Source of the DNA: a virus
Taxonomy: Duplodnaviria > Heunggongvirae > Uroviricota > Caudoviricetes
Reading direction: 5' to 3' (one strand)
DNA: 33,575 bases
Virus record (IMG/VR): IMGVR_UViG_637000261_000005
Below, one piece after another: positions 480-32,168 of the stretch. The notes under the pieces were generated by a model. That model made no database searches and had not been told where the DNA came from. It worked only from the letters and a program-made list of their open reading frames with translations. Within the stretch, counting starts at the first letter, position 1, and every line of letters starts with the position of its first letter. Both the position numbers and the translations under genes were made by a program.

Positions 480-845
480 ATGATTGATGTCTTAGGGCCG
501 GAGAAACGCAGACGGCGTACCACACAGGAAAGGATCGCAATTGTTCAGCAGAGCTTTGAACCGGGGATGACGGTCTCCCTCGTTGCCCGGCAACATGGTG
601 TAGCAGCCAGCCAGTTATTTCTCTGGCGTAAGCAATACCAGGAAGGAAGTCTTACTGCTGTGGCCGCCGGAGAACAGGTTGTTCCTGCCTCTGAACTTGC
701 TGCCGCCATGAAGCAGATTAAAGAACTCCTGCGCCTGCTCGGCAAGAAAACGATGGAAAATGAACTCCTCAAAGAAGCCGTTGAATATGGACGGGCAAAA
801 AAGTGGATAGCGCACGCGCCCTTATTGCCCGGGGATGGGGAGTAA
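480..845 (+). CDS. insC: IS2 transposase OrfA (InsC)
   Basis: The 121-aa [56 protein letters not shown]... is recognised as IS2 InsC (HTH, IS3 family). Confidence 0.95.
797..803 (+). promoter_or_regulatory. A6G (AAAAAAG) programmed -1 frameshift site joining IS2 orfA to orfB
   Basis: The heptamer sits in the orfA/orfB overlap, as is established for IS3-family elements. Confidence 0.7.
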
Positions 846-1708
846 GCTTAGTCAGCCGTTGTCTCCGGGTGTCGCGTGCGCAGTTGCACGTCATTCTCAG
901 ACGAACCGATGACTGGATGGATGGCCGCCGCAGTCGTCACACTGATGATACGGATGTGCTTCTCCGTATACACCATGTTATCGGAGAGCTGCCCACGTAT
1001 GGTTATCGTCGGGTATGGGCGCTGCTTCGCAGACAGGCAGAACTTGATGGTATGCCAGCGATCAATGCCAAACGTGTTTACCGGATCATGCGCCAGAATG
1101 CGCTGTTGCTTGAGCGAAAGCCTGCTGTACCGCCATCGAAACGGGCACATACAGGCAGAGTGGCCGTGAAAGAAAGCAATCAGCGATGGTGCTCTGACGG
1201 GTTCGAGTTCTGCTGTGATAACGGAGAGAGACTGCGTGTCACGTTCGCGCTGGACTGCTGTGATCGTGAGGCACTGCACTGGGCGGTGACTACCGGCGGC
1301 TTCAACAGTGAAACAGTACTGGACGTCATGCTGGGTGCGGTGGAACGCCGCTTCGGCAACGATCTTCCGTCGTCTCCAGTGGAGTGGCTGACGGATAATG
1401 GTTCATGCTACCGGGCTAATGAAACACGCCAGTTCGCCCGGATGTTGGGACTTGAACCGAAGAACACGGCGGTGCGGAGTCCGGAGAGTAACGGAATAGC
1501 AGAGAGCTTCGTGAAAACGATAAAGCGTGACTACATCAGTATCATGCCCAAACCAGACGGGTTAACGGCAGCAAAGAACCTTGCAGAGGCGTTCGAGCAT
1601 TATAACGAATGGCATCCGCATAGTGCGCTGGGTTATCGCTCGCCACGGGAATATCTGCGGCAGCGGGCTTGTAATGGGTTAAGTGATAACAGATGTCTGG
1701 AAATATAG
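803..1708 (+). CDS. insD: IS2 transposase OrfB (InsD), DDE integrase-like domain
   Basis: The 301-aa ORF ends ...[32 protein letters not shown] and is recognised as IS2 InsD. Confidence 0.95.
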
Positions 1709-1719
1709 GGGCAAATCCA

Positions 1720-1915
1720 ACGGGATGCCCTCTGATGAGTGAATGGGGGAGGCGTGCTTTGAAGTGAATTTGTGGAAGGCTTCCAGTGTTGAGAAACATA
1801 CGCCGCATTCTAGATTGTTACACTGATAATACTTTTGTCTCACGGTGTTTGAATCATTTTCCGGACGACTGGTGCGGATACGGGCAGATGCGCCACAAAG
1901 CGGACAACGGAACAT
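1720..1915 (-). pseudogene. ogr: Ogr late-gene transcription activator (zinc finger), 5' 65 codons, interrupted by IS2
   Basis: MFRCPLCGASARIRTSRPENDSNTVRQKYYQCNNLECGVCF... carries the CxxC...CxxxxC pattern and aligns with P2 Ogr (MFHCPLC...YHQCQNVNCSATF). The last 13 codons of the tracked 78-aa ORF ([12 protein letters not shown]) are read from the IS2 end. Confidence 0.85.
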
Positions 1916-1945: not shown

Positions 1946-1974
1946 ATTCTAGGTTGTATTCTCTAAGATTTAAA
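1946..1974 (-). promoter_or_regulatory. Candidate sigma70 promoter for ogr (-35 TTTAAA, 17-nt spacer, -10 TAGAAT)
   Basis: On the minus strand the -35 is at 1974-1969 and the -10 at 1951-1946. GAGAGG Shine-Dalgarno precedes the ogr ATG. Based on hexamer match only. Confidence 0.3.
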
Positions 1975-2020
1975 CATGACTTTCTCTATATAATGATTTT
2001 TAGCATTAGTTAATAAACGA

Positions 2021-2042
2021 ACGGCACTCTAAGGAGCGCCGT
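2021..2042 (-). terminator. Hairpin 9 nt downstream of the 1039-aa ORF (ACGGCACTC-TAAG-GAGCGCCGT, one mismatch), candidate terminator
   Basis: A 9-bp GC-rich stem sits in an otherwise AT-rich stretch and is followed on the minus strand by TCGTTTATT. It lies between the cargo gene stop (2051) and the ogr promoter candidate. Confidence 0.45.
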
Positions 2043-2050
2043 CAAAGATA

Positions 2051-5000
2051 TTATTCTGATGTCACTCTTTGCGAGTGAGCTATTTTTAAATCAGCGTTTC
2101 CTTCAAATACTATATTCAACTCATAGTTAAGAGTTAGCTTGAATTTATCTGAGTCACTTTTGATATTCTCTGAAGTGACATTTACTAACTTATTATTATC
2201 ATATTCTCTAATAATTAATTTAGTGAAGTAGTTATCCTTTACCACAAGAGAAAATGGTTGATTAACAAATGGTAAGAAGTAAACCTTACGGGTACCGGAT
2301 TCAGTAGTTATGTTCATAGAGCCATCATCATTTTTTCTCATTAGTTCTCTGAGGTTGGGATTATCGAAAAGCATACGATTATATTGCTGAAAGATCTCTT
2401 TACTCATCACAAGAACCAGTTTGCCAGCCAAGTCAGCAGATGATTTTATGTGATCAATCAACATATTGAAATCTTCTATTACGGTATGTTGCGAACAGCC
2501 AGTGCTAAATAAATTTGAAAGTATTATTCTCTGGATGTCCTTGAGAATTAAGTCTGCTTGAATATCACCTTCATTGATATAAGGGATGGATTCTATTCCT
2601 TCGGCATACGGTTCTTTATCTATCTTAATAGATATCTTATGTTTTGTGAAACAATCGCTAGCCTGCTTAAAATCAATAGATTTGAAAAGTGAAAGAGGGA
2701 GCGTTTTCTTGATGCGTTTACGAAGATGTTCTGATGTTTTACGTGCAGTGCTATCTAGTCGATGTACATCTATGGCAGCATCCTGAAGTCTCATATCAAG
2801 ATCTTTCTTTAGCATGTTAATATGCTCTTGAAGCAACTTTCTTAAGTTTTCTTTTTTTGTTTGGAGATCGTCCAATGTTAAAGTCAGCTTGATTTTAGTG
2901 TATTCGATGGAGTTACAAATTTTTGATAATACTCCAATGAGTCGTTGCTTCTCACGATATGTTATATAGTTGTTTTCTATTGCTTCTTTTATTTCTTTTG
3001 ATACGCTATCGTTCTTTTTAGAAAAAATTAATAATAGCTGAACCCATGATTGTTCCATATCAATAAATCCACAGTCAAAAACATTACTGTAAACTCTGCC
3101 CATCACCATGTCTGTTTTATCATAGTCACGTAAACGCCTTGCTAAACTATTCATCCACCCATTGTGCTCCATATTTTCAGACCATGTCCACAGGCAGATT
3201 CTAATTAATATCTTGATTAGTTGGCTTGCATTATCAATTTCTTCAGTGGGAGTTTCATATCCACCGGTTTGGTCAATAAGTTTACCCTCTAAAATAAGTT
3301 TAATGTAATGTGTCATTAGTTTGTCAGAAGTATTGATTCTTGATGTCAGATAAAGACATGTGCATATACGCATGTCAGTCAACGCATTTATGATGGCAAT
3401 ATTGAACCACTCTCTGTCTGAATTGAAGTTTAGTTTTTTGGATATGAAAAAACCCGGGTTAAAAAGCTGGCCTTTGTAACTGTATTTTTCTACCGAATGG
3501 CTGTCAATATTCATTGAGTGCTGCCATCGGTTAATAAGATCGACGGCTGTATCAATAGTAGAAGGATCGCGAGTCTGTGTTGCATCAATAATCATCGATG
3601 GAAGTTCTTGTAGTTGCGTTTTGCAAAATAATTCAAATAAATCTGAATTCTCTGTATTGCAGAAACGAAAGTTTATGCTTTCTTGATATTGCTCCCAAAC
3701 AGTGATATAGGTTCTTAATATACGATTATAACGTGAACGAAGCGAGGCATTTAAGAGTGATTGGTTGTTTCGGAACCATTCTGTTAATATTGACCATTGT
3801 GAACGAGTAATTCCCATATAGATACAAAGTTCATTGCTGATAAGATGTTTTCTATTATTGATAATACGCACTCCGCTCCAAAGACATAATTCAAAAAATC
3901 TTTCAGAAAGATTAATTTTATCCATGGAATTATTTGATATTTTATAAACTTCATCTGAAAACTCATATTGAAAACTCCGTTCAAATAATTCTGTAGTGAT
4001 CAGTAAGAAGTTATTGTTGGTATTATCATCTTGAAAAAAATACAAATCGCAGAGATTATTAAAGTTATTAATTAATGCAGAGATAGCATTGTCAAAACTA
4101 ATGAGATCAGAATCCCGCAGATACATATACGTATCTGCTGTTATAGCCTGCATTGTAAGACTTACGGAAAAATCTCCTCCTTTAATCGGAGCCCTATAAA
4201 AACATTGCTTAAGTATTTTTATTAATAAGCTGTCTGGTTTGATATTTTTAACGCTAAAAAGTATCTTACCCGTGGATTCTGTTTCTTTTGTACGATTATC
4301 ACCAATGACAAATGACGCAAAATGATTCTTCTTTTTTAGTTGGTAATTAATAAGATTAAGAGTAAGTTGAAAAGGACGGTGATATAAACTTAACTCATCT
4401 TCCTTAGAATAACTGCTAGCCACAGATATGTATTCTCCTTTGTAATCGGCTTGCGTGATTTCTAAATTTGAATAGTTATGTTTTTGATAGATAGGGTATA
4501 ACCTAAGCTTGGCTGAGATTTTGTTACAAATATGGGGCATTACTATTTCGAAGGCAATGTATCGCTTTATAATTATTTGCCGTTTTACATCATCAAGAAT
4601 TTCAAGACTCACGATAAAGAACCAAATAGAAAGAACTATGTTTATCAAAAGCCATAATATGCTGATTAGACAAGCTATACCATAAAGATAACTTCCAAAG
4701 ACAGTTTTAATTAGTACACTGAGAAGTATAAATCCTGATAAGAAAAGCCCGCTGAGTCCAGCAAGCATGAATCCTGAGTAACGCTGATAAGCAGTTTGGG
4801 CTATTTTTCTATCTGCCTTTTTTTGGAATAAGACACTTACTAAACCTATAACAAGGGGGTATACAATACCAATAATTGTCAATTGGCCACTTAAAATGGT
4901 TGTTTGCCATTCGGTTAATGAATGCCTAAACGGGAAATAATGTAAAAGATTATTTTTTATAAATAATTCGTTTAAATATCCAACATAAAGTAGTACAAAT

Positions 5001-5170
5001 GAAAAAGCTGATATGCAAAGTACTGATTTAACCGGTGAGGATGTTAATCTTATGATGTTTTTTTCAATAAAATTCCATTTTAAATTCGAATAAAATGGAT
5101 TTTTAACCATTTTATTACGAACATAGTTCTTTGCTAAAATCTCTGTTGCACTTAAAAATTGTCCAATCAT
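2051..5170 (-). CDS. Uncharacterised 1039-aa membrane protein (4-5 N-terminal TM helices plus about 840 aa of soluble, largely helical region); prophage cargo, function unknown
   Basis: A 3.1-kb uninterrupted ORF lies in about 28-32% GC DNA (my hand count of sampled lines), where stop codons should be frequent. Hydrophobic segments occur at about aa 49-66, 91-115, 132-154 and 160-190. A heptad-like charged stretch spans about aa 762-822. I found no Walker A, HExxH, nuclease, TIR or SIR2 signature. Confidence 0.9.
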   Translation of the reverse strand: MIGQFLSATEILAKNYVRNKMVKNPFYSNLKWNFIEKNIIRLTSSPVKSVLCISAFSFVLLYVGYLNELFIKNNLLHYFPFRHSLTEWQTTILSGQLTIIGIVYPLVIGLVSVLFQKKADRKIAQTAYQRYSGFMLAGLSGLFLSGFILLSVLIKTVFGSYLYGIACLISILWLLINIVLSIWFFIVSLEILDDVKRQIIIKRYIAFEIVMPHICNKISAKLRLYPIYQKHNYSNLEITQADYKGEYISVASSYSKEDELSLYHRPFQLTLNLINYQLKKKNHFASFVIGDNRTKETESTGKILFSVKNIKPDSLLIKILKQCFYRAPIKGGDFSVSLTMQAITADTYMYLRDSDLISFDNAISALINNFNNLCDLYFFQDDNTNNNFLLITTELFERSFQYEFSDEVYKISNNSMDKINLSERFFELCLWSGVRIINNRKHLISNELCIYMGITRSQWSILTEWFRNNQSLLNASLRSRYNRILRTYITVWEQYQESINFRFCNTENSDLFELFCKTQLQELPSMIIDATQTRDPSTIDTAVDLINRWQHSMNIDSHSVEKYSYKGQLFNPGFFISKKLNFNSDREWFNIAIINALTDMRICTCLYLTSRINTSDKLMTHYIKLILEGKLIDQTGGYETPTEEIDNASQLIKILIRICLWTWSENMEHNGWMNSLARRLRDYDKTDMVMGRVYSNVFDCGFIDMEQSWVQLLLIFSKKNDSVSKEIKEAIENNYITYREKQRLIGVLSKICNSIEYTKIKLTLTLDDLQTKKENLRKLLQEHINMLKKDLDMRLQDAAIDVHRLDSTARKTSEHLRKRIKKTLPLSLFKSIDFKQASDCFTKHKISIKIDKEPYAEGIESIPYINEGDIQADLILKDIQRIILSNLFSTGCSQHTVIEDFNMLIDHIKSSADLAGKLVLVMSKEIFQQYNRMLFDNPNLRELMRKNDDGSMNITTESGTRKVYFLPFVNQPFSLVVKDNYFTKLIIREYDNNKLVNVTSENIKSDSDKFKLTLNYELNIVFEGNADLKIAHSQRVTSE

Positions 5171-5260
5171 GAATTACTCTTCTATAAAGTGTGGGTCTAC
5201 TAACTAAACTGGAACTTTTACTATTGAGTCATATTCCCTTGGACGGGATGGACTGTGAAG

Positions 5261-5266
5261 ATTATA
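5261..5266 (-). promoter_or_regulatory. Perfect TATAAT -10 hexamer about 90 nt upstream of the cargo ORF (weak -35)
   Basis: The minus strand reads ...CCCACATGACAGAGGAAGTCAAGTATAATCTTC. This is the only consensus -10 I see in the 248-bp AT-rich gap 5171-5418. Confidence 0.25.
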
Positions 5267-5418
5267 CTTGACTTCCTCTGTCATGTGGGAAAAACATCCG
5301 TATTATTGTTAGCATCTGGTTGATGCCCCAACCTCTGACATCTAGTGGGCTGATACATTATCTTTTGTTCTTACTGTCAGTGTAGAAGCACATCTCAAAA
5401 ATAATATTTTTAAGAGAT

Positions 5419-6528
5419 TTATTCTGTTTCTGCTATCCATTCCGGGATTTTTGCTTCAAGTTCAAGCTGCGTGGTAAAGCCGCTGTTATCAATGGTGTGC
5501 TCGGCTTTTGCAATAGTCCAGTCCTGATAATCAATCTCGCTTTTAAAGCCTGTCACTGTGCCATGCATTTCGGGATAGAGTTCTGCACGACCACGCGCCA
5601 GCGTGATGGAGAATGATGCGGCTCCGCGTTGTAGCTGCTGCCACTTTGCCGCCGCTGCGCGTCTTGCTGCCTGCTCGTTCTGATAAGTCTTGCGTAACAC
5701 AAACACGTTGCCTTCCGCACCTTCCATATAGTCGCCTTCCCGACTGCTGCTTTTCTCCTTTTTGGGTTTTGGCGGTTTGCGGCGTTTCACGCTGACTTTT
5801 TTCTTTTTCCCGTAATTAAGATCAAGCCAGTAGGCGCGTACCCCCGTATACGCCTCGCGGTCAGCAATGCGGAACTGATGGCGATCGCCGCTGCTGCGTG
5901 TAATGGCGAACGAGGGCAACGGCTGCCCCTGTGCGTTCACGCCACCACCTGGCATGATGAATAACAGATTGCCGCTTTTTACCGTGGCGATTGCTCCCAG
6001 CATTTCCGCCATGCGCGTAAGAAAGGACATGTCGCTTTCTTCGGTCTGGTCGGCGTGGTCGATTTCGATATCCATCAGCATTTCGCTGATTTGCGGTTTC
6101 AGACCGTACCGATGAGTGATGGCGGATACCACACGCTCAACGGTCACATCATGCCAGGACACCTCACGTTTAACGTTAAATTCATCCCGAAAATCTGCGC
6201 TTCTGGCTGAAACAGTCAGCCTGTCCGGCGGTCCTTCGTGAGCGATTTCATCAACAATGTAAGTGCCTTTTTCTGTCAGCGGTTCCCCTTTCCAGCCAAT
6301 GAGAACCGTCAGACGCGCGCCCCGTGGCGGTAGCTGCAACTGACCATCCGCATCATCCAGCGTGATGGTGAGCTGGTCCGCCTCAAATCCCCGGTTGTCG
6401 GTCAGTTACAGGCTCATCAGGCGCTCCGCCACGCCTGACAGCGTTTTACCCTCCGAGAGAATATCAAAATCCGGCATTTTCACGGGGGCCGTGCCCTGAC
6501 TGAGCAATTGCATGGTGGTGTCGGTCAT
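5419..6528 (-). pseudogene. D: Tail protein gpD with an in-frame TAA after codon 40
   Basis: The two tracked ORFs (6406-6660 and 5419-6339) are in the same frame. Reading through gives ...GVAERLMSL*LTDNRGFEADQLTITLDDADGQLQLPPRGARLTVLIGWKGEPL..., which is colinear with P2 gpD (..RRLISLTMTDNRGFEADQLDIELDD..). The stop is at 6408-6406. The ATG at 6528 is preceded by GGGAGGGAG. Confidence 0.85.
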
Positions 6529-6582
6529 CTGCTCCCTCCCTGTGCGGCATGGTCGCATGTGCGTGCGGAGGGGGTTACTGCT

Positions 6583-6608
6583 TTTTGTTGTCGCCGTGGC
6601 GGGAGAAC
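6583..6608 (+). promoter_or_regulatory. TTTTGTTGT-N12-AGAAC element in the D|FI divergent intergenic region; candidate Ogr-responsive late promoter site
   Basis: The same 9-mer, 12-nt spacer and 5-mer recur at 25253-25278 in the O|P intergenic region. It resembles the TGT-N12-ACA dyad established for P2 late promoters but reads TGT-N12-AGA. Confidence 0.4.
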
Positions 6609-6685
6609 GGCGCAGGGGTGAGATTACGCGCGTGGTGGGTGATGATTGTTGCTGAATCATTTAACGGATACAAGGGGCTGAAGCT

Positions 6686-7870
6686 ATGAGTGAAACTCGT
6701 TTTCATGGTGCCCGTGTTACGGAGAATACCGACCTGGTAACAGCGATTAACGATGTTGATTCCAGCGTTATCGGTATCGTGGCAACGGCGGATGATGCGG
6801 ACGCGAAGCTGTTCCCGCTGAACAAGCCCACACTGCTGACCCGCGTCAATGACGTGCTGGGAAAATGCGGGACAACGGGGACGCTTTATCGTGCGCTTAA
6901 GGCCATCGCAGACCAGGTGAGCACAAAGGTGATCGTCGTTCGCGTGGCTGAACACAAAGAAGAAGACGGAAAGACGCAGGATCAACTGGTTATCGGTGGT
7001 TCTGAGGATGACGGCAGCTATACGGGGATGTATGCGCTGCTTGTTGCAGAGCAGGATGAAAGCATCGGATACCGTCCGCGTATTCTGGCCGCGCCGGAGC
7101 TGGACACGGAGGCGGTAACAAAATCCCTGTGCGTGATTGCAGATAAACTGCGCGCGTTTGTGTATGCCTCATGTCATGGCTGTAACACGATGGCCGAGGC
7201 AATTACCTACCGCCAGAAATTCAACGAACGTGAGGTGATGCTCTTATGGCCGGACTTCATCGCCTACAACCCGAAAAATGGCAAAAACGAAACGTTCCCC
7301 GCGCCTGCCTATGCGTGCGGCCTTCGTGCGTACATTGACCATGAACAGGGATGGCACAAATCGCTGTCCAACGTTCCGGTTAAAAATGTGCTGGGGATGT
7401 CGAGGCATGTGTTCTGGTCGTTGCAGGCCGAAGACAGCGATGCCAACAGCCTCAACGACAAAGAAATCACGACCATTATTCGTCGCAACGGGTTCCGCTT
7501 CTGGGGTAACCGCACACCGGAAACGAACGCCTACATCTTTGAGGTGTATACCCGAACCGCACAGGTGCTGGCTGATTCAATTGCGGAAGCGCAGTTTGAA
7601 ACCATCGACAGTCCACTGACGCCTGCGAATGTGAAGGATGTTATCAGTGCCATCAGGGCAAAACTGGATTCACTGGTGACTGCCGGGAAACTGATTGGCG
7701 CGGAGTGCTGGTATGACGTGGTGGATAACAGCACCACGGATTTACGTCAGGGACGTGTGCGTATTCGCTACAAATATACGCCCGTTCCGCCACTGGAAGA
7801 CATGGAGCTTTACCAGACGTTTACTGATGAATACTTTGAACCCGCATTTGCGGTGCTGGGAGGTGCCTGA
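6686..7870 (+). CDS. FI: Contractile tail sheath protein (gpFI)
   Basis: 394 aa, the size and sequence character of P2 FI. It is followed directly by tube, E/E', T and U. Confidence 0.9.
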   Translation: MSETRFHGARVTENTDLVTAINDVDSSVIGIVATADDADAKLFPLNKPTLLTRVNDVLGKCGTTGTLYRALKAIADQVSTKVIVVRVAEHKEEDGKTQDQLVIGGSEDDGSYTGMYALLVAEQDESIGYRPRILAAPELDTEAVTKSLCVIADKLRAFVYASCHGCNTMAEAITYRQKFNEREVMLLWPDFIAYNPKNGKNETFPAPAYACGLRAYIDHEQGWHKSLSNVPVKNVLGMSRHVFWSLQAEDSDANSLNDKEITTIIRRNGFRFWGNRTPETNAYIFEVYTRTAQVLADSIAEAQFETIDSPLTPANVKDVISAIRAKLDSLVTAGKLIGAECWYDVVDNSTTDLRQGRVRIRYKYTPVPPLEDMELYQTFTDEYFEPAFAVLGGA

Positions 7871-8380
7871 TGGCTGTGCCAAAACATCTTCGCTTTTTTA
7901 CGCTGTTTGTGGATGGTGAAAACGAAGTGGGTAATGTGACGTCCGTCACTCTGCCTAAGCTGACGCGCAAAACCGACAGCTACCGGGGTGGTGGCATGAT
8001 GGGTGCGGTAAGTATTGATCTCGGTCTGGACGACTCCGCGCTTGATGCGAGCTTTGTCATGGGGGCGCAGTTCGTGAGCTGTTCCTTAAGTATGGCGGCA
8101 CGATTGACGGCACGCTGCTGCGTTTTGCGGGTGAATACTACACCGATGCAGAAAGCGACCTGTATGAAGTCGAAATGCGCGGACGTGTGACGGAAATTGA
8201 TATGGGGGAAGCCAAACAGGGCGAAGCCACATCACACACTTACGCCATTAAAACACCTACTACAAGCTGAGTGTTAACGATCGCCCGTTGTGGGAGATTG
8301 ACCTGCTGAACTTCATTTACCGGAAGGACGGCAAGGACATTGTGCCCGATCGCATCCGTTCCGCGCTTGGGCTTGGCTGA
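7870..8380 (+). pseudogene. FII: Tail tube protein (gpFII) with two frameshifts
   Basis: Frame 0 reads MAVPKHLRFFTLFVDGENEVGNVTSVTLPKLTRKTDSYRGGGMMGAVSIDLGL...ASFVMG. Homology continues in a second frame from about 8070 (VRELFLKYGGTIDGTLLRFAGEYYTDAESDLYEVEMRGRVTEIDMGEAKQGEATSHTYAIK). It then moves to a third frame from 8258 (YYKLSVNDRPLWEIDLLNFIYRKDGKDIVPDRIRSALGLG*). The shifts lie near the G5 run at 8061-8065 and near 8250-8258. Confidence 0.85.
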
Positions 8381-8435
8381 TAAGTAATATGCTGGCGGCG
8401 CAGTGCGTCGCCTCTGACTGAAAAGGAGACAACAG

Positions 8436-8810
8436 ATGAAAGACATCGATACTGAAACCCGGAATAACACCGTGGCGGATAATGTGACGGCAGTTGAGGA
8501 TATGGCTGTCGAACGTGGCGTAAAACTGACCCGACCAATTGAGCGTGGTGCCGAAAAAATCACGTATGTGGAGATCACCGGGGCTATTGAGCAGGCTGGA
8601 TCCCTGCGTGGTCTGTCGCTGTCTGATGTGCTGAATCTGAAAGCGGATACCATGTTCACGCTGTTGCCTCGCGTGACCTCGCCACGACTGGATGAAGTGA
8701 TGATTAAAAAAATGTCGTCACGCGATTTTATTCAGTTGTGCGCTGTGGCTGTAAATTTTATGAGCGAGCCAGACTCTGGCGCGAAGAGCGTGCAGGAGAC
8801 GGCAGCGTAA
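8436..8810 (+). CDS. E: Tail assembly chaperone gpE
   Basis: AAGGAG lies 7 nt upstream of the ATG. The stretch ..LRGLSLSDVLNLKADTMFTLLPRVTSP.. is gpE-like. It occupies the position between tube and tape measure. Confidence 0.85.
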   Translation: MKDIDTETRNNTVADNVTAVEDMAVERGVKLTRPIERGAEKITYVEITGAIEQAGSLRGLSLSDVLNLKADTMFTLLPRVTSPRLDEVMIKKMSSRDFIQLCAVAVNFMSEPDSGAKSVQETAA

Positions 8811-8923
8811 TCACCCTGGTGTGCTTTGAGCACATCGAAGATCTGGTGGCGGATATTGCCGCCATTTTTAACTGGTCGCCCGCCGAAATCTTCATGATGA
8901 CGCCCGGCGAAGTGGTTAGCTGA
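8436..8923 (+). CDS. gpE+E' -1 frameshift fusion product
   Basis: The slippery heptamer A_AAT_TTT at 8753-8759 lies in the E zero frame (GTA AAT TTT). The -1 frame then reads KFYERARLWREERAGDGSVITLVCFEHIEDLVADIAAIFNWSPAEIFMMTPGEVVS* and ends 1 nt before the tape-measure ORF. This is the conserved tail-chaperone frameshift architecture. Confidence 0.75.
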
Positions 8924-8924
8924 C

Positions 8925-11768
8925 GTGAGCGGGCGGCACTTCGTAGCGGGAATGCAGACAATGAAGACTCTTGATATCCGGGTCGCTTTCAGCGCCGTTG
9001 ACAGGCTGACCCGGCCTGCCGAAAACGCCCGCCGCCTGATGGGGCAGTTTGGTGACTCCATCCAGCGAACGCAGGGGGCGATCAAAAATCTCGAGCGTCA
9101 GGCGCGATCATTTGAGCGCGCCCGTGACGCTGTCAGTAAAGCGGATGCTGGCATCGTGAAAGCACGACGCCAGCTTAACGCCCTTAATCAGTTACAACGC
9201 ACGGGTACAGTGCTCAGCGAAAAACAACAAAAGCTGATGCAGCAGTTAAGCACCCGGCTTGAACGCCTGAATGAATCGCGCACACGGGAAATTCAGAAAA
9301 TGCGGGAGCTTGGCGGAGAGCTGAAACGCCACGGCATTTCCCTGACAGGTAGCGATAACACCATCCAGCAGGCCATCAGACGCACCGAACAGTACAACAA
9401 CCAGCTTGAACGCGAACGGCAGGCGCTTGCGCGTGTAACACGGGCGCGTGAGCGGTATTCGCGCGCGCAGGAAACAGCGGGAAAACTGAAAACAGGTGGT
9501 GCGCTGGCAATTGGTGCGGCAGCGGCGGGCGGCTATGCTGCCGGGCGTTTTTTGCAGCCTGCGATCGGGTTCGGCAAAGAGATGTCCCGCGTTCAGGCAC
9601 TGACGCGAATCGACCAGAACAGCCCGCAGTTTAAGGCGCTGCGTGAGCAGGCGTTAAAACTTGGCTCTGAAACGCAGTTCACCGCAGGCGATGCCGCCAG
9701 TGGACAGGCATTTCTTGCAATGGCTGGCTTTACACCACAGGCCATTCAGGCTGCGCTCCCTGGCGTACTGAGCATGGCAACGGCTGGCGGTATGGACCTC
9801 GGTGAGACGGCGGATATTGGCTCAAATATTCTGACGCAGTTCGGTCTTTCTGCTGACCAGATGGACCGGGTCGGCGACACACTCACCGCAGCGTTTACCC
9901 GTACCAACACTGACCTTCGCGCACTGGGTGAAACCATGAAATATGCAGGTCCGGTGGCGGGTAAGCTGGGAATATCTCTGGAGCAGGCCGCAGCGATGGC
10001 GGGCGTGCTGGCGAATATGGGTATCAGGGGGAGTGATGCTGGTACGGCAATGCGTGCCAGCCTGGCTCGTCTGGCATCACCGCCAAAGGCGGCAGCAGAG
10101 GCGCTGAAAGAGCTTGGCGTGTCTGTCTCGGATGCCGGGGGCAAAATGCGCCCGATGGAGGATGTGCTGGCTGACCTTTATAAAGCTACCCGCAAATACG
10201 GGGAAGTTGACCGGGTATCGTTCTTTAAGGACATTGCCGGAGAAGAGGCTTTCACATCATTTATGGCCCTCGTTGATGCGGCAGGTGACGGCTCCTTACC
10301 CAAACTGAGAAAAGAACTTGAAGGCGCGCGCGGTGAGGCTGAACGCACGGCAAAGGTTATGGCCAACAACCTTGACGGCGATCTGAAATCACTCAGCAGT
10401 GCATGGGAAGGGTTGCGCATCCGCATTGCAGATCTGATTGACGGTCCGCTGCGTTCTGTCACGCAGTGGCTCACGCGTGTGGTATCAAAGGTGACGGCGC
10501 TGGCGCAGGCCCATCCCGCACTGACGCGCCAGCTACTGATTGCAGGCGGTGCATTGCTGGCAATGACTGCAACGGTTGGCTCGTTGTCGCTGGCTATTGG
10601 TGTGCTTGCTGGCCCGCTGGCAAAACTGCGTCTTGGTTTTTCCCTCCTGACCGGATCAATGAATGCTGTCAGGGTTCTGCCAGCACTATGGGGAATGGTG
10701 ACGGGTTCCGTTTCTTTACTGGGAGGCGCTATCGGGGCGTTGTTCAGTCCGGTTGGTCTTATCGTGGCTGCGCTTGCCGGAGCTGCCGTTCTTATCTGGA
10801 AATACTGGGATCCCATCAGGGCATTTTTTGCCGGGGTGTTCAGCGGGATTATGGAAAGGCTGACCCCGTTGCGCGAAACCTTTGAACGGTTTGGTCCTGT
10901 TTTTGACGCAATCGGGAGTGGGATCAGCCAGGTGTTTAACTGGTTTAAATCGCTGCTGTCACCGATGGAGTCCAGCAAGGAAACTCTGGATAAATGTACC
11001 AGTGCTGGCGAGATATTCGGTAACGTTCTTGGCGGTGCGTTACAACTTGTTCTGACACCTGCAAAAATGTTGCTGGATACGCTGGCGTGGATACTTGAAA
11101 AGCTTGGTGTGCTTCCGGATGAAGCGGAAAGGGCGCGCAAGAAAATCGAAGACGCACAGCGTGCGGCCATTCTTCAGGACAAGGTTGCCTTGCTTCAGGG
11201 GGATCTGGCGAAAATCAATCCGCCGAAGCCTGTGGAAAATGGCAATGGCACCGGAGGTGATAACCCCAAAGACAATAAACCGCTCACAGACAGCAATACC
11301 GGTACGCTGCGCAGACTCAGCAAAATTGCTGATAACACAGGTAAGCTGGTTGAGGAGACGAAAAAACGCATTGGCCCCGGCGATATTGTCTTTAAAAACC
11401 TGCCCCGAGCACTTGCTGTTCGTGGGGAGTGGCAGGAGCGGAAGATTGCGCAGGTCAGTAAGCCTGCCCCCGCAATTAATATCACACCCGTGGTTCCGGC
11501 TCCGCTGCCTCCGGCGCTGGTCCCTGTTGTTGCAGCCAGCTCCCGCCCGGTGGCGGAGGCTATACGATCTCCAGTGGCATCAGTTCCTGTAACTTCCCGT
11601 AACCGGGAGCCTGTTGCCTTCGGATTTGGTGGTGAAATTCATGTTCATCTGCATAACGTTGTTACGCAGAATCCCCGCGAACTGGCGAAACTGGTCGGTG
11701 AAATGGTCAGGGCAGAAATGGAACGGCGCGCCCGTGCCGGGCGTGGCTGTTTTTACGATAAAGATTGA
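8925..11768 (+). CDS. T: Tail tape measure protein (gpT)
   Basis: 947 aa. It has an N-terminal coiled-coil character and a central Gly/Ala-rich hydrophobic block, and sits after E/E'. The true start may be the ATG at 8952 or 8961 rather than the GTG at 8925. Confidence 0.9.
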   Translation: MSGRHFVAGMQTMKTLDIRVAFSAVDRLTRPAENARRLMGQFGDSIQRTQGAIKNLERQARSFERARDAVSKADAGIVKARRQLNALNQLQRTGTVLSEKQQKLMQQLSTRLERLNESRTREIQKMRELGGELKRHGISLTGSDNTIQQAIRRTEQYNNQLERERQALARVTRARERYSRAQETAGKLKTGGALAIGAAAAGGYAAGRFLQPAIGFGKEMSRVQALTRIDQNSPQFKALREQALKLGSETQFTAGDAASGQAFLAMAGFTPQAIQAALPGVLSMATAGGMDLGETADIGSNILTQFGLSADQMDRVGDTLTAAFTRTNTDLRALGETMKYAGPVAGKLGISLEQAAAMAGVLANMGIRGSDAGTAMRASLARLASPPKAAAEALKELGVSVSDAGGKMRPMEDVLADLYKATRKYGEVDRVSFFKDIAGEEAFTSFMALVDAAGDGSLPKLRKELEGARGEAERTAKVMANNLDGDLKSLSSAWEGLRIRIADLIDGPLRSVTQWLTRVVSKVTALAQAHPALTRQLLIAGGALLAMTATVGSLSLAIGVLAGPLAKLRLGFSLLTGSMNAVRVLPALWGMVTGSVSLLGGAIGALFSPVGLIVAALAGAAVLIWKYWDPIRAFFAGVFSGIMERLTPLRETFERFGPVFDAIGSGISQVFNWFKSLLSPMESSKETLDKCTSAGEIFGNVLGGALQLVLTPAKMLLDTLAWILEKLGVLPDEAERARKKIEDAQRAAILQDKVALLQGDLAKINPPKPVENGNGTGGDNPKDNKPLTDSNTGTLRRLSKIADNTGKLVEETKKRIGPGDIVFKNLPRALAVRGEWQERKIAQVSKPAPAINITPVVPAPLPPALVPVVAASSRPVAEAIRSPVASVPVTSRNREPVAFGFGGEIHVHLHNVVTQNPRELAKLVGEMVRAEMERRARAGRGCFYDKD

Positions 11769-11774
11769 GGAGTC

Positions 11775-12269
11775 ATGGCCATGATGATGATCTACGGCAT
11801 GTTTGTTTTTGAGCTGCGCACGCTGCCGCATCAGCAGTTACAGCAAAACAAAAGCTGGCGGCATGTGAAAAATGAACGCGTTAACCGTTCAGCAAGCTGG
11901 CAGTATATCGGTGCAGGTGATGATCGCATCGTTCTTTCTGGTGTGCTTTATCCTGAAATTACAGGTGGCGAAGTGTCGCTGTCGCTGCTGACTACGCAGG
12001 CGTATACAGGACGACCCTGGCCTTTGATTGATGGCGTCGGGCAGATTTACGGCATGTATGTCCTGACTGAAACGAATACGACCCGCTCCGAGTTTGATCG
12101 CTACGGTAAGGCGAAAAAGATAGAATTTTCACTGACTCTTGAACGCTGTGATGAGGATTTGCGGGAGCGCCTGCAATCCTCATCGTTCAGTGATATGCTG
12201 TCCGGCTTCAAAGATAAGGTGACATCATCTCTTAACAGCGCGGCCAGTTCAGTTAAAGGGCTGTTCTGA
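11775..12269 (+). CDS. U: Tail protein gpU
   Basis: MAMMMIYGMFVFELRTLPHQQLQQNKSWRHVKNERVNR... aligns with P2 gpU (MMMVLGLFVFMLRTVPYQELQYQRNWRHASNSRVNR..). Confidence 0.9.
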   Translation: MAMMMIYGMFVFELRTLPHQQLQQNKSWRHVKNERVNRSASWQYIGAGDDRIVLSGVLYPEITGGEVSLSLLTTQAYTGRPWPLIDGVGQIYGMYVLTETNTTRSEFDRYGKAKKIEFSLTLERCDEDLRERLQSSSFSDMLSGFKDKVTSSLNSAASSVKGLF

Positions 12270-12277
12270 TTTAACAC

Positions 12278-12308
12278 AAAAACCGCTAATGGTCAGATTA
12301 GCGGTTTT
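12278..12308. terminator. Bidirectional rho-independent terminator shared by convergent gpU and the invertase
   Basis: AAAAACCGCTAAT-GGTCAG-ATTAGCGGTTTT forms a 12-bp stem with T-rich tracts on both strands. The invertase stop codon lies in the right arm. Confidence 0.7.
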
Positions 12309-12915
12309 CATTTTCCTGAGTCTGCCCGGTTGTTTCTTCAGTCTGTATATCGCCTACAGGGTGATAACGATAAATCGTCGATGTGCCAATGCCGTAAATT
12401 ATTGCCAGTTGTTTTCTGTCGTGCCCGTTTTTGATTAGCCTTGCTATTTGCTCATGCTGTTCTTTTGTCAGCTTCGGTCGACGTCCGCCTGTGCGCCCCC
12501 TTGCGCGCGCTGCCGCCAGCCCGGCCAGTGTACGTTCAACAATTAATTCACGTTCCATTTCAGCCAGGGCACCCATCACGTGGAAGAAAAAACGCCCCAT
12601 TGGAGAAGATGTGTCTATGCTGTCGGTCAGACTGCGAAAATTAATCCCTCGCTCCCGTAGTTCCCCGACGAGAGAAATCAGATGTTTCATGCTTCGCCCG
12701 AGGCGATCCAGTTTCCAGACAACCAGCGTGTCACCTTTTTGAAGGCGCTTTAAAGCGCGTTTTAATCCCGGTCGGTCTGTCTTTGTCCCGCTTAATTTAT
12801 CTTCAAATATTTGTTCACATCCTGCACAAACAAGAGCGTTTTGTTGCAGGTCTGTATTCTGGTCATTTGTTGATACCCTTACATAGCCAATCAGCACACT
12901 GAATCTCCCGTCCAA
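12298..12915 (-). CDS. pin: Serine DNA invertase of the Gin/Pin/Cin/Hin family
   Basis: ..LIGYVRVSTNDQNTDLQQNALVCAGCEQIFEDKLSGTKTDRPGLKRALKRLQKGDTLVVWKLDRLGRSMKHLISLVGELRERGINFRSLTDSIDTSSPMGRFFFHVMGALAEMEREL.. is near-identical to Mu Gin as I recall it. The functional start is probably the GTG at 12897 (VLIGY). Confidence 0.95.
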   Translation of the reverse strand: MDGRFSVLIGYVRVSTNDQNTDLQQNALVCAGCEQIFEDKLSGTKTDRPGLKRALKRLQKGDTLVVWKLDRLGRSMKHLISLVGELRERGINFRSLTDSIDTSSPMGRFFFHVMGALAEMERELIVERTLAGLAAARARGRTGGRRPKLTKEQHEQIARLIKNGHDRKQLAIIYGIGTSTIYRYHPVGDIQTEETTGQTQENENR

Positions 12916-13675: not shown

Positions 13676-14209
13676 ATGATGCACTTAAAAAACATTACTG
13701 CTGGCAACCCTAAAACAAAAGAGCAATACCAGCTAACAAAGCAATTTAACATCAAATGGCTTTATTCAGATGATGGAAAAAACTGGTATGAGGAACAAAA
13801 GAATTTCCAGCCAGACACTTTGAAAATGGTCTATTACCATAACGGCGTTATTATTTGTATTGAAAAGGATGTTTCAGCAATTAATCCGGAAGGCGCAAGC
13901 GTCGTTGAATTACCTGATATTACAGCAAATCGCCGGGCTGATATTTCGGGGAAATGGTTGTTCAAAGATGGCGTAGTGATAAAGCGAACTTATACCGAGG
14001 AAGAGCAGAGGCAACAAGCGGAAAATGAAAAGCAAAGCCTGTTGCAACTTGTCAGGGATAAAACCCAGCTATGGGACTCACAGCTACGGCTGGGCATCAT
14101 TTCCGACGAGAATAAACAAAAATTAACCGAGTGGATGCTCTATGCGCAGAAAGTCGAATCTACAGACACCTCCAGCCTGCCAGTAACGTTTCCCGAACAA
14201 CCAGAATGA
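13676..14209 (+). CDS. Tail fibre assembly protein (Mu U / Tfa family), silent orientation
   Basis: [40 protein letters not shown]... has the typical Tfa N-terminus. The gene is intact at 177 aa. Confidence 0.9.
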   Translation: MMHLKNITAGNPKTKEQYQLTKQFNIKWLYSDDGKNWYEEQKNFQPDTLKMVYYHNGVIICIEKDVSAINPEGASVVELPDITANRRADISGKWLFKDGVVIKRTYTEEEQRQQAENEKQSLLQLVRDKTQLWDSQLRLGIISDENKQKLTEWMLYAQKVESTDTSSLPVTFPEQPE

Positions 14210-14237: not shown

Positions 14238-14846
14238 TTACTCAGGCTTTTGTGGCCATTCGGGATTTGCTGTATCCACACGGCTGACCAGAACGCTGTA
14301 GCGTTCCCATGACTCCAGTCGTGTGCGTTCCTCATCCATCGCCATATTCAGCCTGACAGCGCGTTCCAGTGGCTGAATAACGCTTTCAGCTTCAGAAAGC
14401 AACGCGACCTTTTGTGATTCGGCCTGTTGTTGCTGTTCGTCTGCTGTATAAATCCGCTTAACCACAGTTCCGTCCTTAAACATCCACTTCCCTGAATCAT
14501 CGGCACGACGATTGGCTGTTATATCTGGAATCTCAACGACACTAAAGCCTTCGGGATTAAGTGTTGGGGCATCTTTGGTTATGGCAACAATAATATTATT
14601 TTCGTCGTATACAATCTTTATGGTGTCGTCCTGAAAGTTATTTACTTCCTCATACCAGTTTTTACCGTCTTCGGACCATAACCAGATAACATCAAAATTC
14701 TTTGTTAGCTGATATTGTTCTTTTGTTTTTGGATTTCCGGACTTAATATTTTTTAATATGCTGCATAATTTACACCTGTGCGACGTTATACCATGTGCCA
14801 TTGATGTATTTTTGTATTGGTCTGAAGATGGCTTCATCATCGCCAT
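14238..14846 (-). CDS. Tail fibre assembly protein (Tfa family), expressed orientation; start codon problematic
   Basis: ..[62 protein letters not shown]... is TfaE/Mu U-like. The expected ATG (14766, MQH..) is out of frame by 1 nt. The only in-frame ATGs (14801, 14846) lie inside gpH. Confidence 0.75.
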
Positions 14847-28628: not shown

Positions 28629-29219
28629 TCAGGTGTTATTTTTATCTGTCGTCAGTGGGCTAAACCATCCACAATTTACATCGCATGACTGATGCGTTCT
28701 GTCCTCGTGTTTCTCCTGCCACAATGCTTTTCCGCCAGCCTTTATGATGGCTCTTTCAACATCCCGCTCGTATCGCAAGGGCTGAAATACGTCATTAATG
28801 AAATATTCGCTTATGTCCGGAAGCGATACTGCAAAATTATTTGTTTGTTGCGCCGTCCTGCTATGCAGCAAAGCGGCATGCTTTAATGCGTCCTGTGCTT
28901 TCTGGAATTTAAGTGCATAGTCAGTGGCGATTTTTTCCAGTTCAGCGATTCGGTTGTCTTTGGTTTCCAGCCAATCAAGTAGCGCCAATACTTCAGGATC
29001 CCCGACATCCAACACTGTTACGCGTGATTTTTCATAATGTTCGTCAGCAAGAGTTCGGCCAATTTTGAAATCTCCATCATCACCATAACCGGAGCAGGCA
29101 TAAACAACCTGTGCTCCAGATATTCGCTGAATTGACATTTCCTCGCCGCAAATAGGGCATTTCGGTACTGGCACAGGTGAATAACGTTCACGTAATGCCT
29201 GATAGTTGATTTCGCTCAT
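28629..29219 (-). CDS. Hypothetical protein with an N-terminal Cys-pair (zinc-ribbon-like) motif and an Ea22-like coiled-coil motif
   Basis: 196 aa. It contains ..KCPICGEEM...VYACSG.. and ..LLDWLETKDNRIAELEK.., reminiscent of lambdoid ead/Ea22-like proteins. A hairpin CAGGGCGAT..ATCGCCCTG lies just downstream (28590-28615). Confidence 0.6.
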   Translation of the reverse strand: MSEINYQALRERYSPVPVPKCPICGEEMSIQRISGAQVVYACSGYGDDGDFKIGRTLADEHYEKSRVTVLDVGDPEVLALLDWLETKDNRIAELEKIATDYALKFQKAQDALKHAALLHSRTAQQTNNFAVSLPDISEYFINDVFQPLRYERDVERAIIKAGGKALWQEKHEDRTHQSCDVNCGWFSPLTTDKNNT

Positions 29220-29282
29220 TAAGTCGTTCTCCTTGTTTATGTTCTGAGGTGGAGAGCAGGGCGAACTCGCCCTGATGTTGTG

Positions 29283-29594
29283 TTATTCAGGAAATAACGC
29301 CCGGATATTTCCGGCCATCTGACTGGTTATCTGTGCGGTTGATACTGGCTGTGATGCGGGGCGTTCTGTCCTGGTTTGTGTCACTGATAACGCTTCATCA
29401 CCAGCCCATGCAGCCAGTCGATAAGCCTCTGCCGGATTCATTTTCAGAAGTGCCAGCCCGGCCAGAAAAGCCACGCGTTGGCCGCTTTTGCGGGCTTCTG
29501 GTGTAAGGCTGTCCAGCCAGGCGCATGCTTCTCCTTCGTTCTTGACGGCGGTGGGCTTCAGATAGAAACTTATCCGTCTGGTTGGAGTCGTCAT
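29283..29594 (-). CDS. ParR/StbB-like partition adaptor (103 aa)
   Basis: The start MTTPTRRISFYLKP is preceded by AAGGAG. ..ACAWLDSLTPEARKSGQRVAFLAGLALLKMNP.. parallels R1 ParR (..CDTLDSIPQGERSRLNRAALTAGLALYRQNP..). The gene lies immediately downstream of the ParM-like gene. Confidence 0.7.
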   Translation of the reverse strand: MTTPTRRISFYLKPTAVKNEGEACAWLDSLTPEARKSGQRVAFLAGLALLKMNPAEAYRLAAWAGDEALSVTQTRTERPASQPVSTAQITSQMAGNIRALFPE

Positions 29595-29598
29595 TGGT

Positions 29599-30204
29599 TT
29601 ACTCCTTGTCCATTGCGTACAGCCCATTAACCAGAGCAAACTGTGGCACCCCGTCCGCGATGAAAGTCGCATTAACTCCGCAGGCTTCGCGGATAGCGGG
29701 TGCCACAATCTCCGCCCCTCCACCGACAACCATCACCCGCCCGTAACCCGAAAAAACCGCCAGCGCGCGGATCACGCGTTGTTTCAGTGTTTCTTCCTTT
29801 TCACGAATTACCGCCATCAGGCTGGCGTAATGCGCGTCATTGTGGATGTGCTGGCGCAGCCAGGCTTCATCATGGCGATGTTCGATAATGGTATTGGCGA
29901 TGTGGTGACTGGTGCGCATACCGTTAGTGGCCATCACCGACAGTACGGCATCGGCCATCAGAGAAACGCCCACGTGTGGATCGCAAAACACCTGGCTGAT
30001 ACCTGCCAGTTGCCCCTGAACCTTTGCCACATCCAGCGTGGTTCCGCCCAAATCCACAATCAGCAGGGATTCAAACGGACTCATGTCAGCCAGTGCCTTA
30101 AAGCCAGCCGGAATGGATTCAGGCATAACCTGTACGTTACGGATAGTGAATGCTTCGCCGTTCTGGTACTCCACCGGGCGCATGACGTTCGCTTTTTTGC
30201 GGTT
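29599..30204 (-). pseudogene. ParM/StbA-like actin-type segregation ATPase, 5'-truncated by IS911 (about 118 N-terminal codons missing)
   Basis: [73 protein letters not shown].. is colinear with R1 ParM (..[38 protein letters not shown]...[28 protein letters not shown]..). The homology starts exactly at the IS911 end. Confidence 0.85.
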
Positions 30205-30212
30205 TGAAGTGG

Positions 30213-31381
<1,169 letters not shown>

Positions 31382-31453
31382 TGGAGCACCTGTGTTGTTC
31401 TGAGGTGAGCATATCACCTCTGTTCAGGTGGCCAAATTCAGTGTGCCACTTCA

Positions 31454-31718
31454 AACCGAAGAACACGGCGGTGCGGAGTCCGGAGAGTAACGGAATAGCA
31501 GAGAGCTTCGTGAAAACGATAAAGCGTGACTACATCAGTATCATGCCCAAACCAGACGGGTTAACGGCAGCAAAGAACCTTGCAGAGGCGTTCGAGCATT
31601 ATAACGAATGGCATCCGCATAGTGCGCTGGGTTATCACTCGCCACGGGAATATCTGCGGCAGCGGGCTTGTAATGGGTTAAGTGATAACAGATGTCTGGA
31701 AATATAGGGGCAAATCCA
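31454..31718 (+). mobile_element. IS2 right-end fragment (last 265 bp), truncated by IS911
   Basis: It matches 1455-1719 of the full copy with one difference that I can see (CGC to CAC, R to H). It ends GGGGCAAATCCA at 31718. Confidence 0.9.
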
Positions 31719-31917
31719 CTGCGGCACAGATCAGCTCGGAAAGTTCGTTAAGTGCATCCAGATCATCAGCGTAAAAAGCCACGTCATACAGACTTCGGAT
31801 TGCTCTGGTCAATGAGTCACGGGCCGCACGTTCAGCATGAGCGCCTGATGCACTTAAGCGAAAATAAAAACGCTCAAGTGCTTTGTTAATGAGAGTTTTA
31901 TATTCTTTGCCCATCAC
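31719..31917 (-). pseudogene. Hypothetical early-region gene, 3'-truncated by the IS2 fragment
   Basis: MMGKEYKTLINKALERFYFRLSASGAHAERAARDSLTRAIRSLYDVAFYADDLDALNELSELICAAV. The tracked ORF then reads into IS2 and ends with the same [12 protein letters not shown] tail as ogr::IS2. Confidence 0.5.
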
Positions 31918-31925
31918 AACGCCCT

Positions 31926-32126
31926 TTAATCTGCTTTCTGTATTTCAGCTTCTGAATCCATACAAATAATTTCGATATAGGGTTCATCGCCATTAACCTG
32001 GCGTGCCTTTTCAGCTTCGCTAATGATTTCTTGTACGGTCTGGTACGGAAGTTCCACAAGCAGTCGCGTGCCGTTCAGATAAACGTAAGTGGCTTCGTCG
32101 GCTCCGTTTTTACCCGCCGGAGTCAC
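31926..32126 (-). CDS. Hypothetical small protein or gene fragment abutting IS629 (possibly 5'-truncated)
   Basis: The 66-aa ORF starts (GTG) at the very first base outside the IS629 end. No recognisable family. Confidence 0.35.
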   Translation of the reverse strand: MTPAGKNGADEATYVYLNGTRLLVELPYQTVQEIISEAEKARQVNGDEPYIEIICMDSEAEIQKAD

Positions 32127-32168
32127 TGAACCGCCCCGGGTTTCCTGGAGAGTGTTTTATCTGTGAAC

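Follow-up and report, generated by a model that had tools for sequence, protein, structure and literature searches.

The 33,575-nucleotide virus record IMGVR_UViG_637000261_000005 (the window, meaning the whole stretch that was analyzed) holds a P2-like prophage in which a single gene, encoding a protein of 1039 amino acids (aa), lies between the tail gene D and the late-gene activator gene ogr. The locus raises the question of what this protein does. The reading favored here, at a probability of roughly 0.5, is that it constitutes a mobile, self-contained, single-gene defense system against phages (or against mobile genetic elements, MGEs) that acts through a membrane effector and represents an undescribed family. 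Taken alone, a role in defense or MGE conflict is fairly probable, because homologs travel in defense islands and sit inside type I restriction-modification (R-M) operons. Three features raise the interest of the locus: (i) a capsid-fold domain at the C-terminus of the protein, (ii) the embedding of relatives in R-M operons, and (iii) a wide distribution on plasmids.

Family and Distribution

The initial annotation of the window described the gene as an orphan, a description that no longer holds. An exhaustive profile search retrieved at least 509 clusters at 50% identity, 152 of them below 1e-30, and nearly all are full-length proteins of about 1030–1150 aa with the same architecture. Near-identical copies in Shigella and E. 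coli form a cluster of 692 sequences, relatives at 50–71% identity occur in Erwinia and Pantoea, and proteins of about 1069 aa at about 25–27% identity make up a large set across Enterobacteriaceae. By tblastn, homologs are found on 377 PLSDB plasmids from Escherichia, Klebsiella, Enterobacter, and Salmonella, 216 of which are conjugative. Further homologs come from species-representative genomes of Vibrio, Shewanella, Pseudoalteromonas, Alteromonas, Psychromonas, Psychrobacter, Aliikangiella, and a Desulforhopalus. Two alignments underlie the profile comparisons, one of closer relatives (A1), with which related loci were also sought, and one that is very diverse (A2).

The protein has no match at E ≤ 1 in Pfam, NCBIfam, or PADLOC-DB v2.0.0 (PDC candidates included), and PHROGs yielded only a noise match at 0.015, which bears out the earlier statement that no known family or catalytic signature is recognizable. 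Forty-three diverse relatives share no Pfam family, showing scattered single-member noise only, and gave four sporadic single-member matches to PADLOC (E 0.0015–0.033). When PDB sequences were compared with the two family profiles, A1 gave no match and A2 gave only 2mpk at E 0.95, which is noise. No mention of the accessions WP_264716223, WP_013362823, and WP_023909028 was found in the literature searched, nor do the DefensePredictor supplements contain them. WP_013362823 is the homolog of IncF plasmids such as pF1267-2. Within the reach of these searches, neither the protein family nor its combination of domains has been described, and the hotspot that the gene occupies is a known type of locus.

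Database labels attached to the family are "MFS transporter" (RefSeq) and "nicotinate-nucleotide adenylyltransferase" (UniRef). Both would favor a function outside immunity, in which the protein serves the mobile element (through addiction or stability, exclusion of competing plasmids, or envelope remodeling) or acts as a transporter, as would the frequent occurrence of the gene on conjugative IncF plasmids beside toxin-antitoxin and partition genes. This explanation is unlikely. The MFS assignment is rejected, as the protein has four transmembrane (TM) helices within aa 46–190 rather than 12 and finds no Pfam or NCBIfam match, nor do 42 relatives; the UniRef name is equally unsupported. R-M embedding and co-location with TIR, RES, HNH, and PDC genes point instead to defense.

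Genomic Context of the Homologs

At every examined locus the homolog is a single gene, and its neighbors differ between loci. On IncF plasmids these include genes for an ABC-type AAA ATPase, RES, DUF3800, VapBC/MazE-PIN, a YobI-ATPase, and an S-4TM effector. Other settings are (i) a Rep3 plasmid, with PIN_12 and PLD-like genes, (ii) a satellite-like island with a P4-type primase, where the neighbors are FRG, DUF3800, and HNH, (iii) an integrative and conjugative element (ICE) with RES and Mrr-like genes, (iv) a Serratia chromosomal islet between phn/arsP and nrdD, with the order DUF3800-HNH-homolog-415 aa-TIR, and (v) a metagenomic contig with a type IIG restriction endonuclease-methyltransferase fragment and PDC-M15A.

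Two of these settings hold further genes of note. One IncF islet, on plasmid pCHS4.4-1 (L018, 355–10516), comprises an S-4TM pore-forming effector with its partner, an AAA ATPase, VapBC, the homolog, and DUF3800, while an alternative islet in the same set of plasmids (L002–L007, L018) consists of an ABC-type ATPase, two small ORFs (open reading frames), the homolog, and RES. The IncF islet, which lies next to ccdAB/repE or colicin M, may be an unrecognized plasmid defense island. In Serratia (L013–L016, 11734–12981), the unannotated 415-aa protein has no Pfam match and is always encoded after the homolog and before a TIR_2 gene. It is possibly a defense candidate in its own right or a partner of the TIR protein.

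When 137 flanking ORFs were scanned in bulk, type I R-M subunits were the commonest PADLOC matches. Four loci with distant homologs, described as marine and checked gene by gene, have the order hsdM-hsdS-[homolog]-hsdR with abutting or overlapping ORFs: one in Aliikangiella (L029), two in Psychromonas (L031, L035), and one in an integrase-flanked IMG/VR island (L045). Because HsdM is 96% identical between L031 (6872–16635) and L045 (6890–16529) and the embedded homologs are only 37% identical, the comparison shows that the embedded gene is either swapped or diverges much more rapidly than the R-M genes around it. The hsdR gene of L045 is divided between two ORFs.

Embedding of this kind has precedents. 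The hsdS–hsdR slot is occupied by prrC in other operons (PMC12707154), embedded tgvAB has proven anti-phage activity (PMC11411939), and Payne et al. (bioRxiv 10.1101/2024.01.29.577857) consider that even one embedded instance warrants a defense hypothesis, termed "guilt-by-embedding". The present family is not among the embedded candidates of Payne et al. that are held in PADLOC. The distant homologs share the slot of prrC, and genes embedded in this way are typically defense genes, as experiments have shown in the known cases. PrrC and TgvAB are nevertheless unrelated to the 1039-aa protein, which has no ABC-ATPase, anticodon-nuclease, or GmrSD domains, and most family members, the window copy included, are not embedded in R-M operons as the homologs in L029, L031, L035, and L045 are.

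The shared slot also suggests a PrrC-like guardian: the type I R-M complex would keep the protein inactive, and inhibition of that complex by a phage anti-restriction protein would set it off. What speaks for such a mechanism is the position between hsdS and hsdR, the slot of prrC (PMC12707154), in four loci where the ORFs abut or overlap. It is nonetheless highly improbable: the window copy and hundreds of enterobacterial copies on plasmids, ICEs, and islets stand alone with no adjacent R-M genes, and neither an ABC-ATPase nor a nuclease domain is present. Pfam, PADLOC, and fold searches alike found none of the PrrC domains (ABC-ATPase N-domain, anticodon-nuclease C-domain). Defense-island neighbors and type I R-M embedding lend support to a defense or exclusion role, of the kind that had been proposed for the protein in the initial annotation.

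Architecture and Conservation of the Protein

The uninterrupted 3.1-kb ORF noted at the outset, on the same minus strand as ogr and D, has exactly the extent given in Table 1. A stop-free run of 1039 codons at 32.8% GC has a computed chance probability of about 1e-35. The full-length AlphaFold2 (AF2) model has a pLDDT (predicted local distance difference test) of 81 and a pTM (predicted template modeling score) of 0.67. Hydropathy and the model agree on four TM helices (aa 46–66, 85–114, 134–158, and 160–190), which settles at four the 4–5 hydrophobic helices originally counted within the first ~190 residues. The ~840 residues that follow were first taken as soluble and helical. They are soluble, and aa 336–820 form a helical solenoid, but aa 231–335 and about 821–1039 are α/β regions. 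A heptad-like stretch reported at aa 762–822 corresponds to the two long helices that end the solenoid.

Because lysines and arginines number 7 before TM1, 2 in the loop 67–84, 5 in the loop 115–133, and 7 after TM4, an N-in/C-in topology is indicated, with the remaining ~850 residues in the cytoplasm. The TM module is the most conserved part of the protein and has the highest information content of all regions. Its motifs include QLTIIGIVYPLVIGLVS in TM2, YSGFMLAGLSGL at the start of TM3, and W173/N177/S181/W183-F184-F185 in TM4. Invariant residues of the module are P105 and N177, as well as Q96, G138, S140, and W173. In relatives that are about 25% identical overall, identity reaches 50–55% in the TM module and is 13–22% in the C-terminal HK97-fold domain (see below) and 15–27% in the α/β insert, which has the lowest conservation of all regions. 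The cytoplasmic domains diverge fast while the TM module stays strongly conserved. Conserved positions in the solenoid are W492-E493, D544/W549, N595/D599/R601, and R657, and within its flexible loop R692 is invariant across 43 diverse members, with G691 and Y694 at least 90% conserved.

Table 1. Features of the window that are discussed in the text, with positions on the 33,575-nucleotide stretch
Feature	Position	Strand	Details
1039-aa ORF, four-TM + α-solenoid + HK97-fold protein	2051–5170	-	ATG start; AF2 model; family with same architecture
aa 1–45, cytoplasmic N-terminal helices	5036–5170	-	7 K+R; among closer relatives (A1), W32 nearly invariant and E36 invariant
aa 46–190, four-helix TM module, proposed effector	4601–5035	-	Hydropathy; invariant columns
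aa 191–335, basic exit helix (194–224) and small α/β insert (231–335)	4166–4600	-	Secondary structure of the model
aa 336–820, cytoplasmic α-helical solenoid	2711–4165	-	Ends in two long helices, 766–797 and 802–820
aa 686–700, flexible loop	3071–3115	-	pLDDT below 50; motif MVSGRxYSG; model and family alignment
aa 821–1039 (about), C-terminal HK97-fold capsid/encapsulin-like α/β domain	2054–2710	-	Predicted structure
Cargo cassette at the D–ogr junction	1957–5422	.	3466 bp, 33.0% GC; blastn against the empty UTI89 junction
Upstream region, acquired together with the gene	5171–5422	-	252 bp; sigma-70-like site TCTACA-18-GATAAT at 5386–5357
Terminator-like hairpin	2020–2043	-	8 nt past the stop codon; 10-bp stem with 6 GC pairs
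ogr, late-gene activator, downstream flank of the hotspot	1679–1915	-	Pfam Ogr_Delta, 4e-14
gpD (tail/baseplate hub) ORF, upstream flank of the hotspot	5419–6339	-	Pfam Phage_GPD, 6e-16, profile positions 64–304 of 305
IS2-like IS3-family element	480–1719		orfA 480–845, orfB 803–1708; ends inside the 3′ end of ogr, boundary 1719/1720

A membrane module of this kind would also suit superinfection exclusion (Sie) at the inner membrane without cell death, in which the four TM helices, placed where phage DNA crosses the membrane, would block injection in the manner of SieA or T4 Imm and the cytoplasmic part would only stabilize or localize the protein. In favor of this are carriage of the inner-membrane protein by a prophage, apparent expression from an upstream region of its own, and conservation centered on the membrane module. 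The Sie proteins known so far are small, however, and a ~850-aa solenoid and capsid-fold part that is kept full-length in at least 509 clusters is hard to explain as a passive anchor; moreover, the gene is often carried by plasmids and R-M operons instead of prophages. This mechanism is considered distinctly unlikely.

The Predicted HK97-Fold Domain

The C-terminal domain, which the initial annotation had missed, is predicted to adopt the HK97 capsid/encapsulin fold, and the structural evidence for this assignment is strong. In the model, a hairpin (831–851) is followed by a long helix (867–888), two short helices, and a β-sheet core. The hairpin is presumably E-loop-like and the helix spine-helix-like, in which case the order is the canonical one of E-loop, spine helix, and A/P-domain. 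Structural matches include HK97 gp5 (1ohg, 10.5; 3qpr, 10.1), T4 gp24, λ gpE, and T5, as well as SaPIbov5 Ccm, the capsid of a cf-PICI (capsid-forming phage-inducible chromosomal island), a gene transfer agent (GTA) capsid, and herpesvirus capsid floors; they align over 177–201 of 225 residues at 5–12% identity. The predicted domain thus combines the A/P-domain core, spine helix, and E-loop hairpin that define the structural class with overall likeness to gp5 and encapsulins. At the sequence level, neither the protein nor 43 family members match a capsid or encapsulin family in Pfam (e.g., Phage_capsid, Linocin_M18, Phage_cap_P2) at E ≤ 0.1.

To our knowledge, the HK97 fold has so far been seen only in shell formers, namely the capsids of tailed phages and herpesviruses, encapsulins, GTAs, and satellite capsid proteins, and a literature search found no paper in which such a domain is joined to a membrane protein or serves in a defense protein. 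Three traits set the present protein apart from these shell formers: (i) sequence similarity to them is not detectable, at 5–12% identity, (ii) they are free subunits of about 250–400 aa, whereas the domain here forms the C-terminal end of an integral membrane protein of 1039 aa, and (iii) their genes are accompanied by portal, terminase, protease, or cargo genes, none of which accompany the 1039-aa gene. Head and cargo genes are likewise missing among the neighbors in 23 other loci. An encapsulin or a capsid protein proper is accordingly rejected, as the domain lies behind 820 residues with four TM helices and no morphogenesis or cargo genes are present; shell formation by the domain would also be sterically unlikely.

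A capsid-like domain could instead interfere directly with capsid assembly, without abortive infection, by co-assembling with or capping the procapsids of a rival phage and tethering them to the membrane. The satellite capsid-redirecting proteins Ccm and Sid provide the analogy. Capsid lattice contacts are lineage-specific, though, and identity to any capsid is only 5–12%; such interference would leave the top conservation of the TM module unexplained, and interaction with procapsids is purely hypothetical. It is accordingly judged very unlikely.

Proposed Mechanism

In the defense mechanism favored here, the conserved, polar-residue-rich four-TM bundle would be the effector, acting either as a pore or channel that collapses the membrane potential or by blocking a membrane step of infection, and the fast-evolving cytoplasmic part would serve as sensor and regulator. 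The HK97-fold domain could (a) form capsomer-like pentamers or hexamers that bring several four-TM bundles together or (b) mimic a capsid subunit and thereby bind a component of phage head assembly, be it the major capsid protein, scaffold, prohead protease, or portal. Engagement late in infection would then gate the membrane module, and the infection would be aborted. Oligomerization or recognition is proposed because HK97-fold domains elsewhere form pentameric and hexameric capsomers whose inner face contacts scaffold, protease, or cargo.

A more specific and rather doubtful variant is a capsid-mimic immune sensor, in which the HK97 domain would have been exapted from a capsid or encapsulin ancestor as a decoy subunit behind a solenoid and a four-TM pore. 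Either a major capsid protein or scaffold would co-assemble with the decoy, or a prohead protease would cut the solenoid/HK97 junction, whereupon the pore would open and the infection abort. Delta and scaffold domains join real capsid proteins at their N-terminus, with the delta-domain cleavage site at that junction. Because the large N-terminal part of the 1039-aa protein joins the HK97 domain at the same place, the decoy-substrate model with prohead-protease cleavage is conceivable by analogy.

Among the closest known systems are RexB (of λ RexAB), KwaA (of Kiwa), and the S-4TM effectors of CBASS type, which share a four-helix inner-membrane module and carriage on prophages or in defense islands. 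A membrane-depolarizing role is plausible by analogy with them. The likeness to RexB and KwaA was originally described as one of topology only, and this view stands: the four TM helices are present, and there is no sequence match (none to Pfam S_4TM or in PADLOC). A further difference is that the known proteins have a partner (RexA, KwaB, or cyclase/SMODS), whereas no partner gene is found here and the neighbors of the homologs vary, so that sensor and effector would be a single polypeptide. In its presumed mode of action, the protein most resembles abortive-infection or exclusion systems that consist of one polypeptide with a membrane effector. The newly named P4 systems Crouga, Bandua, Aernus, Toga, Reve, and Hailong were also considered and bear no resemblance to it.

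Several points weigh against the favored reading. (i) The evidence for a defense role is one of genomic association. (ii) No homolog was found by tblastn in 50,697 deposited phage genomes. (iii) The gene is rare in E. coli chromosomes. (iv) In marine Gammaproteobacteria (L030, L032, L034, L035, L036), several homologs are truncated, split into 2–3 ORFs, or interrupted, in L035 by a 388-aa ORF on the opposite strand; these damaged copies look like pseudogenes and suggest frequent loss. (v) The host prophage is decayed, which makes selection for a prophage-borne defense uncertain. (vi) No pore-forming family matches the TM module. (vii) The HK97 assignment comes from predicted models rather than solved structures.

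Cargo at the D–ogr Junction

In the blastn comparison with UTI89 (L019), homology stops at position 1956 and resumes at 5423, and UTI89 has just 5 bp in between. The cassette thus replaces 5 bp of an otherwise empty junction, and its sole gene is the 1039-aa ORF. This comparison confirms that no partner gene lies within the cassette, as had been noted. A two-gene system with ogr or D as the partner is rejected, as these core genes are conserved and occur at empty sites too. The 94 bp of the cassette downstream of the ORF include the terminator-like hairpin, which is a pattern match only, with a weak T-tail. The sigma-70-like site upstream is a consensus match only, and promoter-like sites are not significantly enriched in the upstream region. 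A structured-RNA search of the cassette against Rfam gave no match at E ≤ 1, and a search for flanking repeats found only short chance repeats.

The flanks of the junction match 1205 records among complete E. coli genomes, from which a spread sample of 60 was inspected. D abuts ogr (span ~720 bp) in about two-thirds of the sampled records that match both flanks, and the others carry at least 8 different cargos. These alternative occupants encode DUF3800, DUF2971, PIN, ParA, YecA, and ComF plus a hypothetical protein, along with at least 4 different hypothetical proteins. Most are uncharacterized and worth testing as defense candidates. The 1039-aa gene itself was found in 5 of 5426 complete E. 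coli genomes. The D–ogr junction is a genuine cargo hotspot in which this gene is a rare occupant. The gene is horizontally acquired cargo rather than a P2 core gene, because its GC content (0.33 over gene and cassette) departs from the 0.53–0.55 of the flanking tail genes, it is rare, and the junction is often empty or otherwise occupied. A fixed core-gene junction that is often empty, unrelated occupants elsewhere, and atypical composition are the features of P2-like hotspot cargo.

The proposal that the gene is cargo at D–ogr is thus sustained by low GC, rarity, and varied occupants, although the hotspot, presented there as a third cargo locus, had been noted before. The junction is not named in Rousset et al. 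2022 (PMC9122126) or Moura de Sousa et al. 2026 (PMC13586616), and its logic is that of the hotspots described there. The P2 genes old/tin (A–Q) and Z/fun (among the tail genes) are likewise low-GC accessory genes at fixed core junctions with many occupants. They occupy junctions other than D–ogr, however, and Old, Tin, and Fun are unrelated to the 1039-aa protein.

The Carrier Prophage

The carrier prophage is decayed, with insertion sequence (IS) insertions, a truncated D, an inverted tail block, and an IS-interrupted ParM gene. In ogr, 65 native codons are left, including an intact zinc finger, and the last 13 residues of the product are IS-derived, whereas intact relatives (L001, L019) encode an 86-aa Ogr followed by a Hok/Gef gene. 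Aligned with the Pfam Phage_GPD profile, the D ORF is missing the first ~63 positions; an 84-aa ORF upstream of it (6406–6660) looks like the displaced D N-terminus.

The FI-FII-E-T-U block (6686–12269, plus strand) is inverted relative to D/ogr and the H-to-O genes, unlike the arrangement in canonical P2. The same inverted arrangement occurs in UTI89 and VG38-53E1, and therefore a widespread, possibly defective P2-like lineage shares it. Adjoining the end of the inverted block, a resolvase-type DNA invertase gene (12298–12915, minus) lies next to two opposed tail-fiber-assembly genes (13676–14209, plus; 14238–14846, minus), a combination that looks like an invertible host-range switch.

Beyond the portal gene, the classical A–Q hotspot region (28629–33059) carries Ead/Ea22-like, StbB-like, and ParM genes. 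The ParM gene is interrupted by an IS3-family element (30213–31417), and a further IS3-family transposase gene lies at 32169–33059. About one P2-like phage in four is reported to carry plasmid-partition cargo (PMC9122126), a description that the A–Q content here fits. The number of IS copies is in keeping with a Shigella-like genome.

Implications

Within the reach of the searches, the 1039-aa protein is new as a protein system, and its family context suggests that the gene most probably represents a novel type of anti-phage gene. The work adds a well-documented example of the D–ogr junction of P2-like prophages as a cargo hotspot and corrects two propagated misannotations, the RefSeq and UniRef names of the family. 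If the proposed function is right, a conserved family that couples the HK97 fold to a membrane module and moves through defense hotspots would represent a new case of exaptation of a viral structural protein and probably a new way for bacterial immune systems to sense infection. If the capsid-mimic model were to hold, no earlier immune protein would be known to detect viruses by posing as one of their capsid building blocks, and this one is widespread on clinical IncF plasmids. Because relatives are found on hundreds of sequenced plasmids, conjugative IncF plasmids and others, in E. coli, Klebsiella, Enterobacter, and Salmonella, such a system could affect phage therapy and plasmid ecology.

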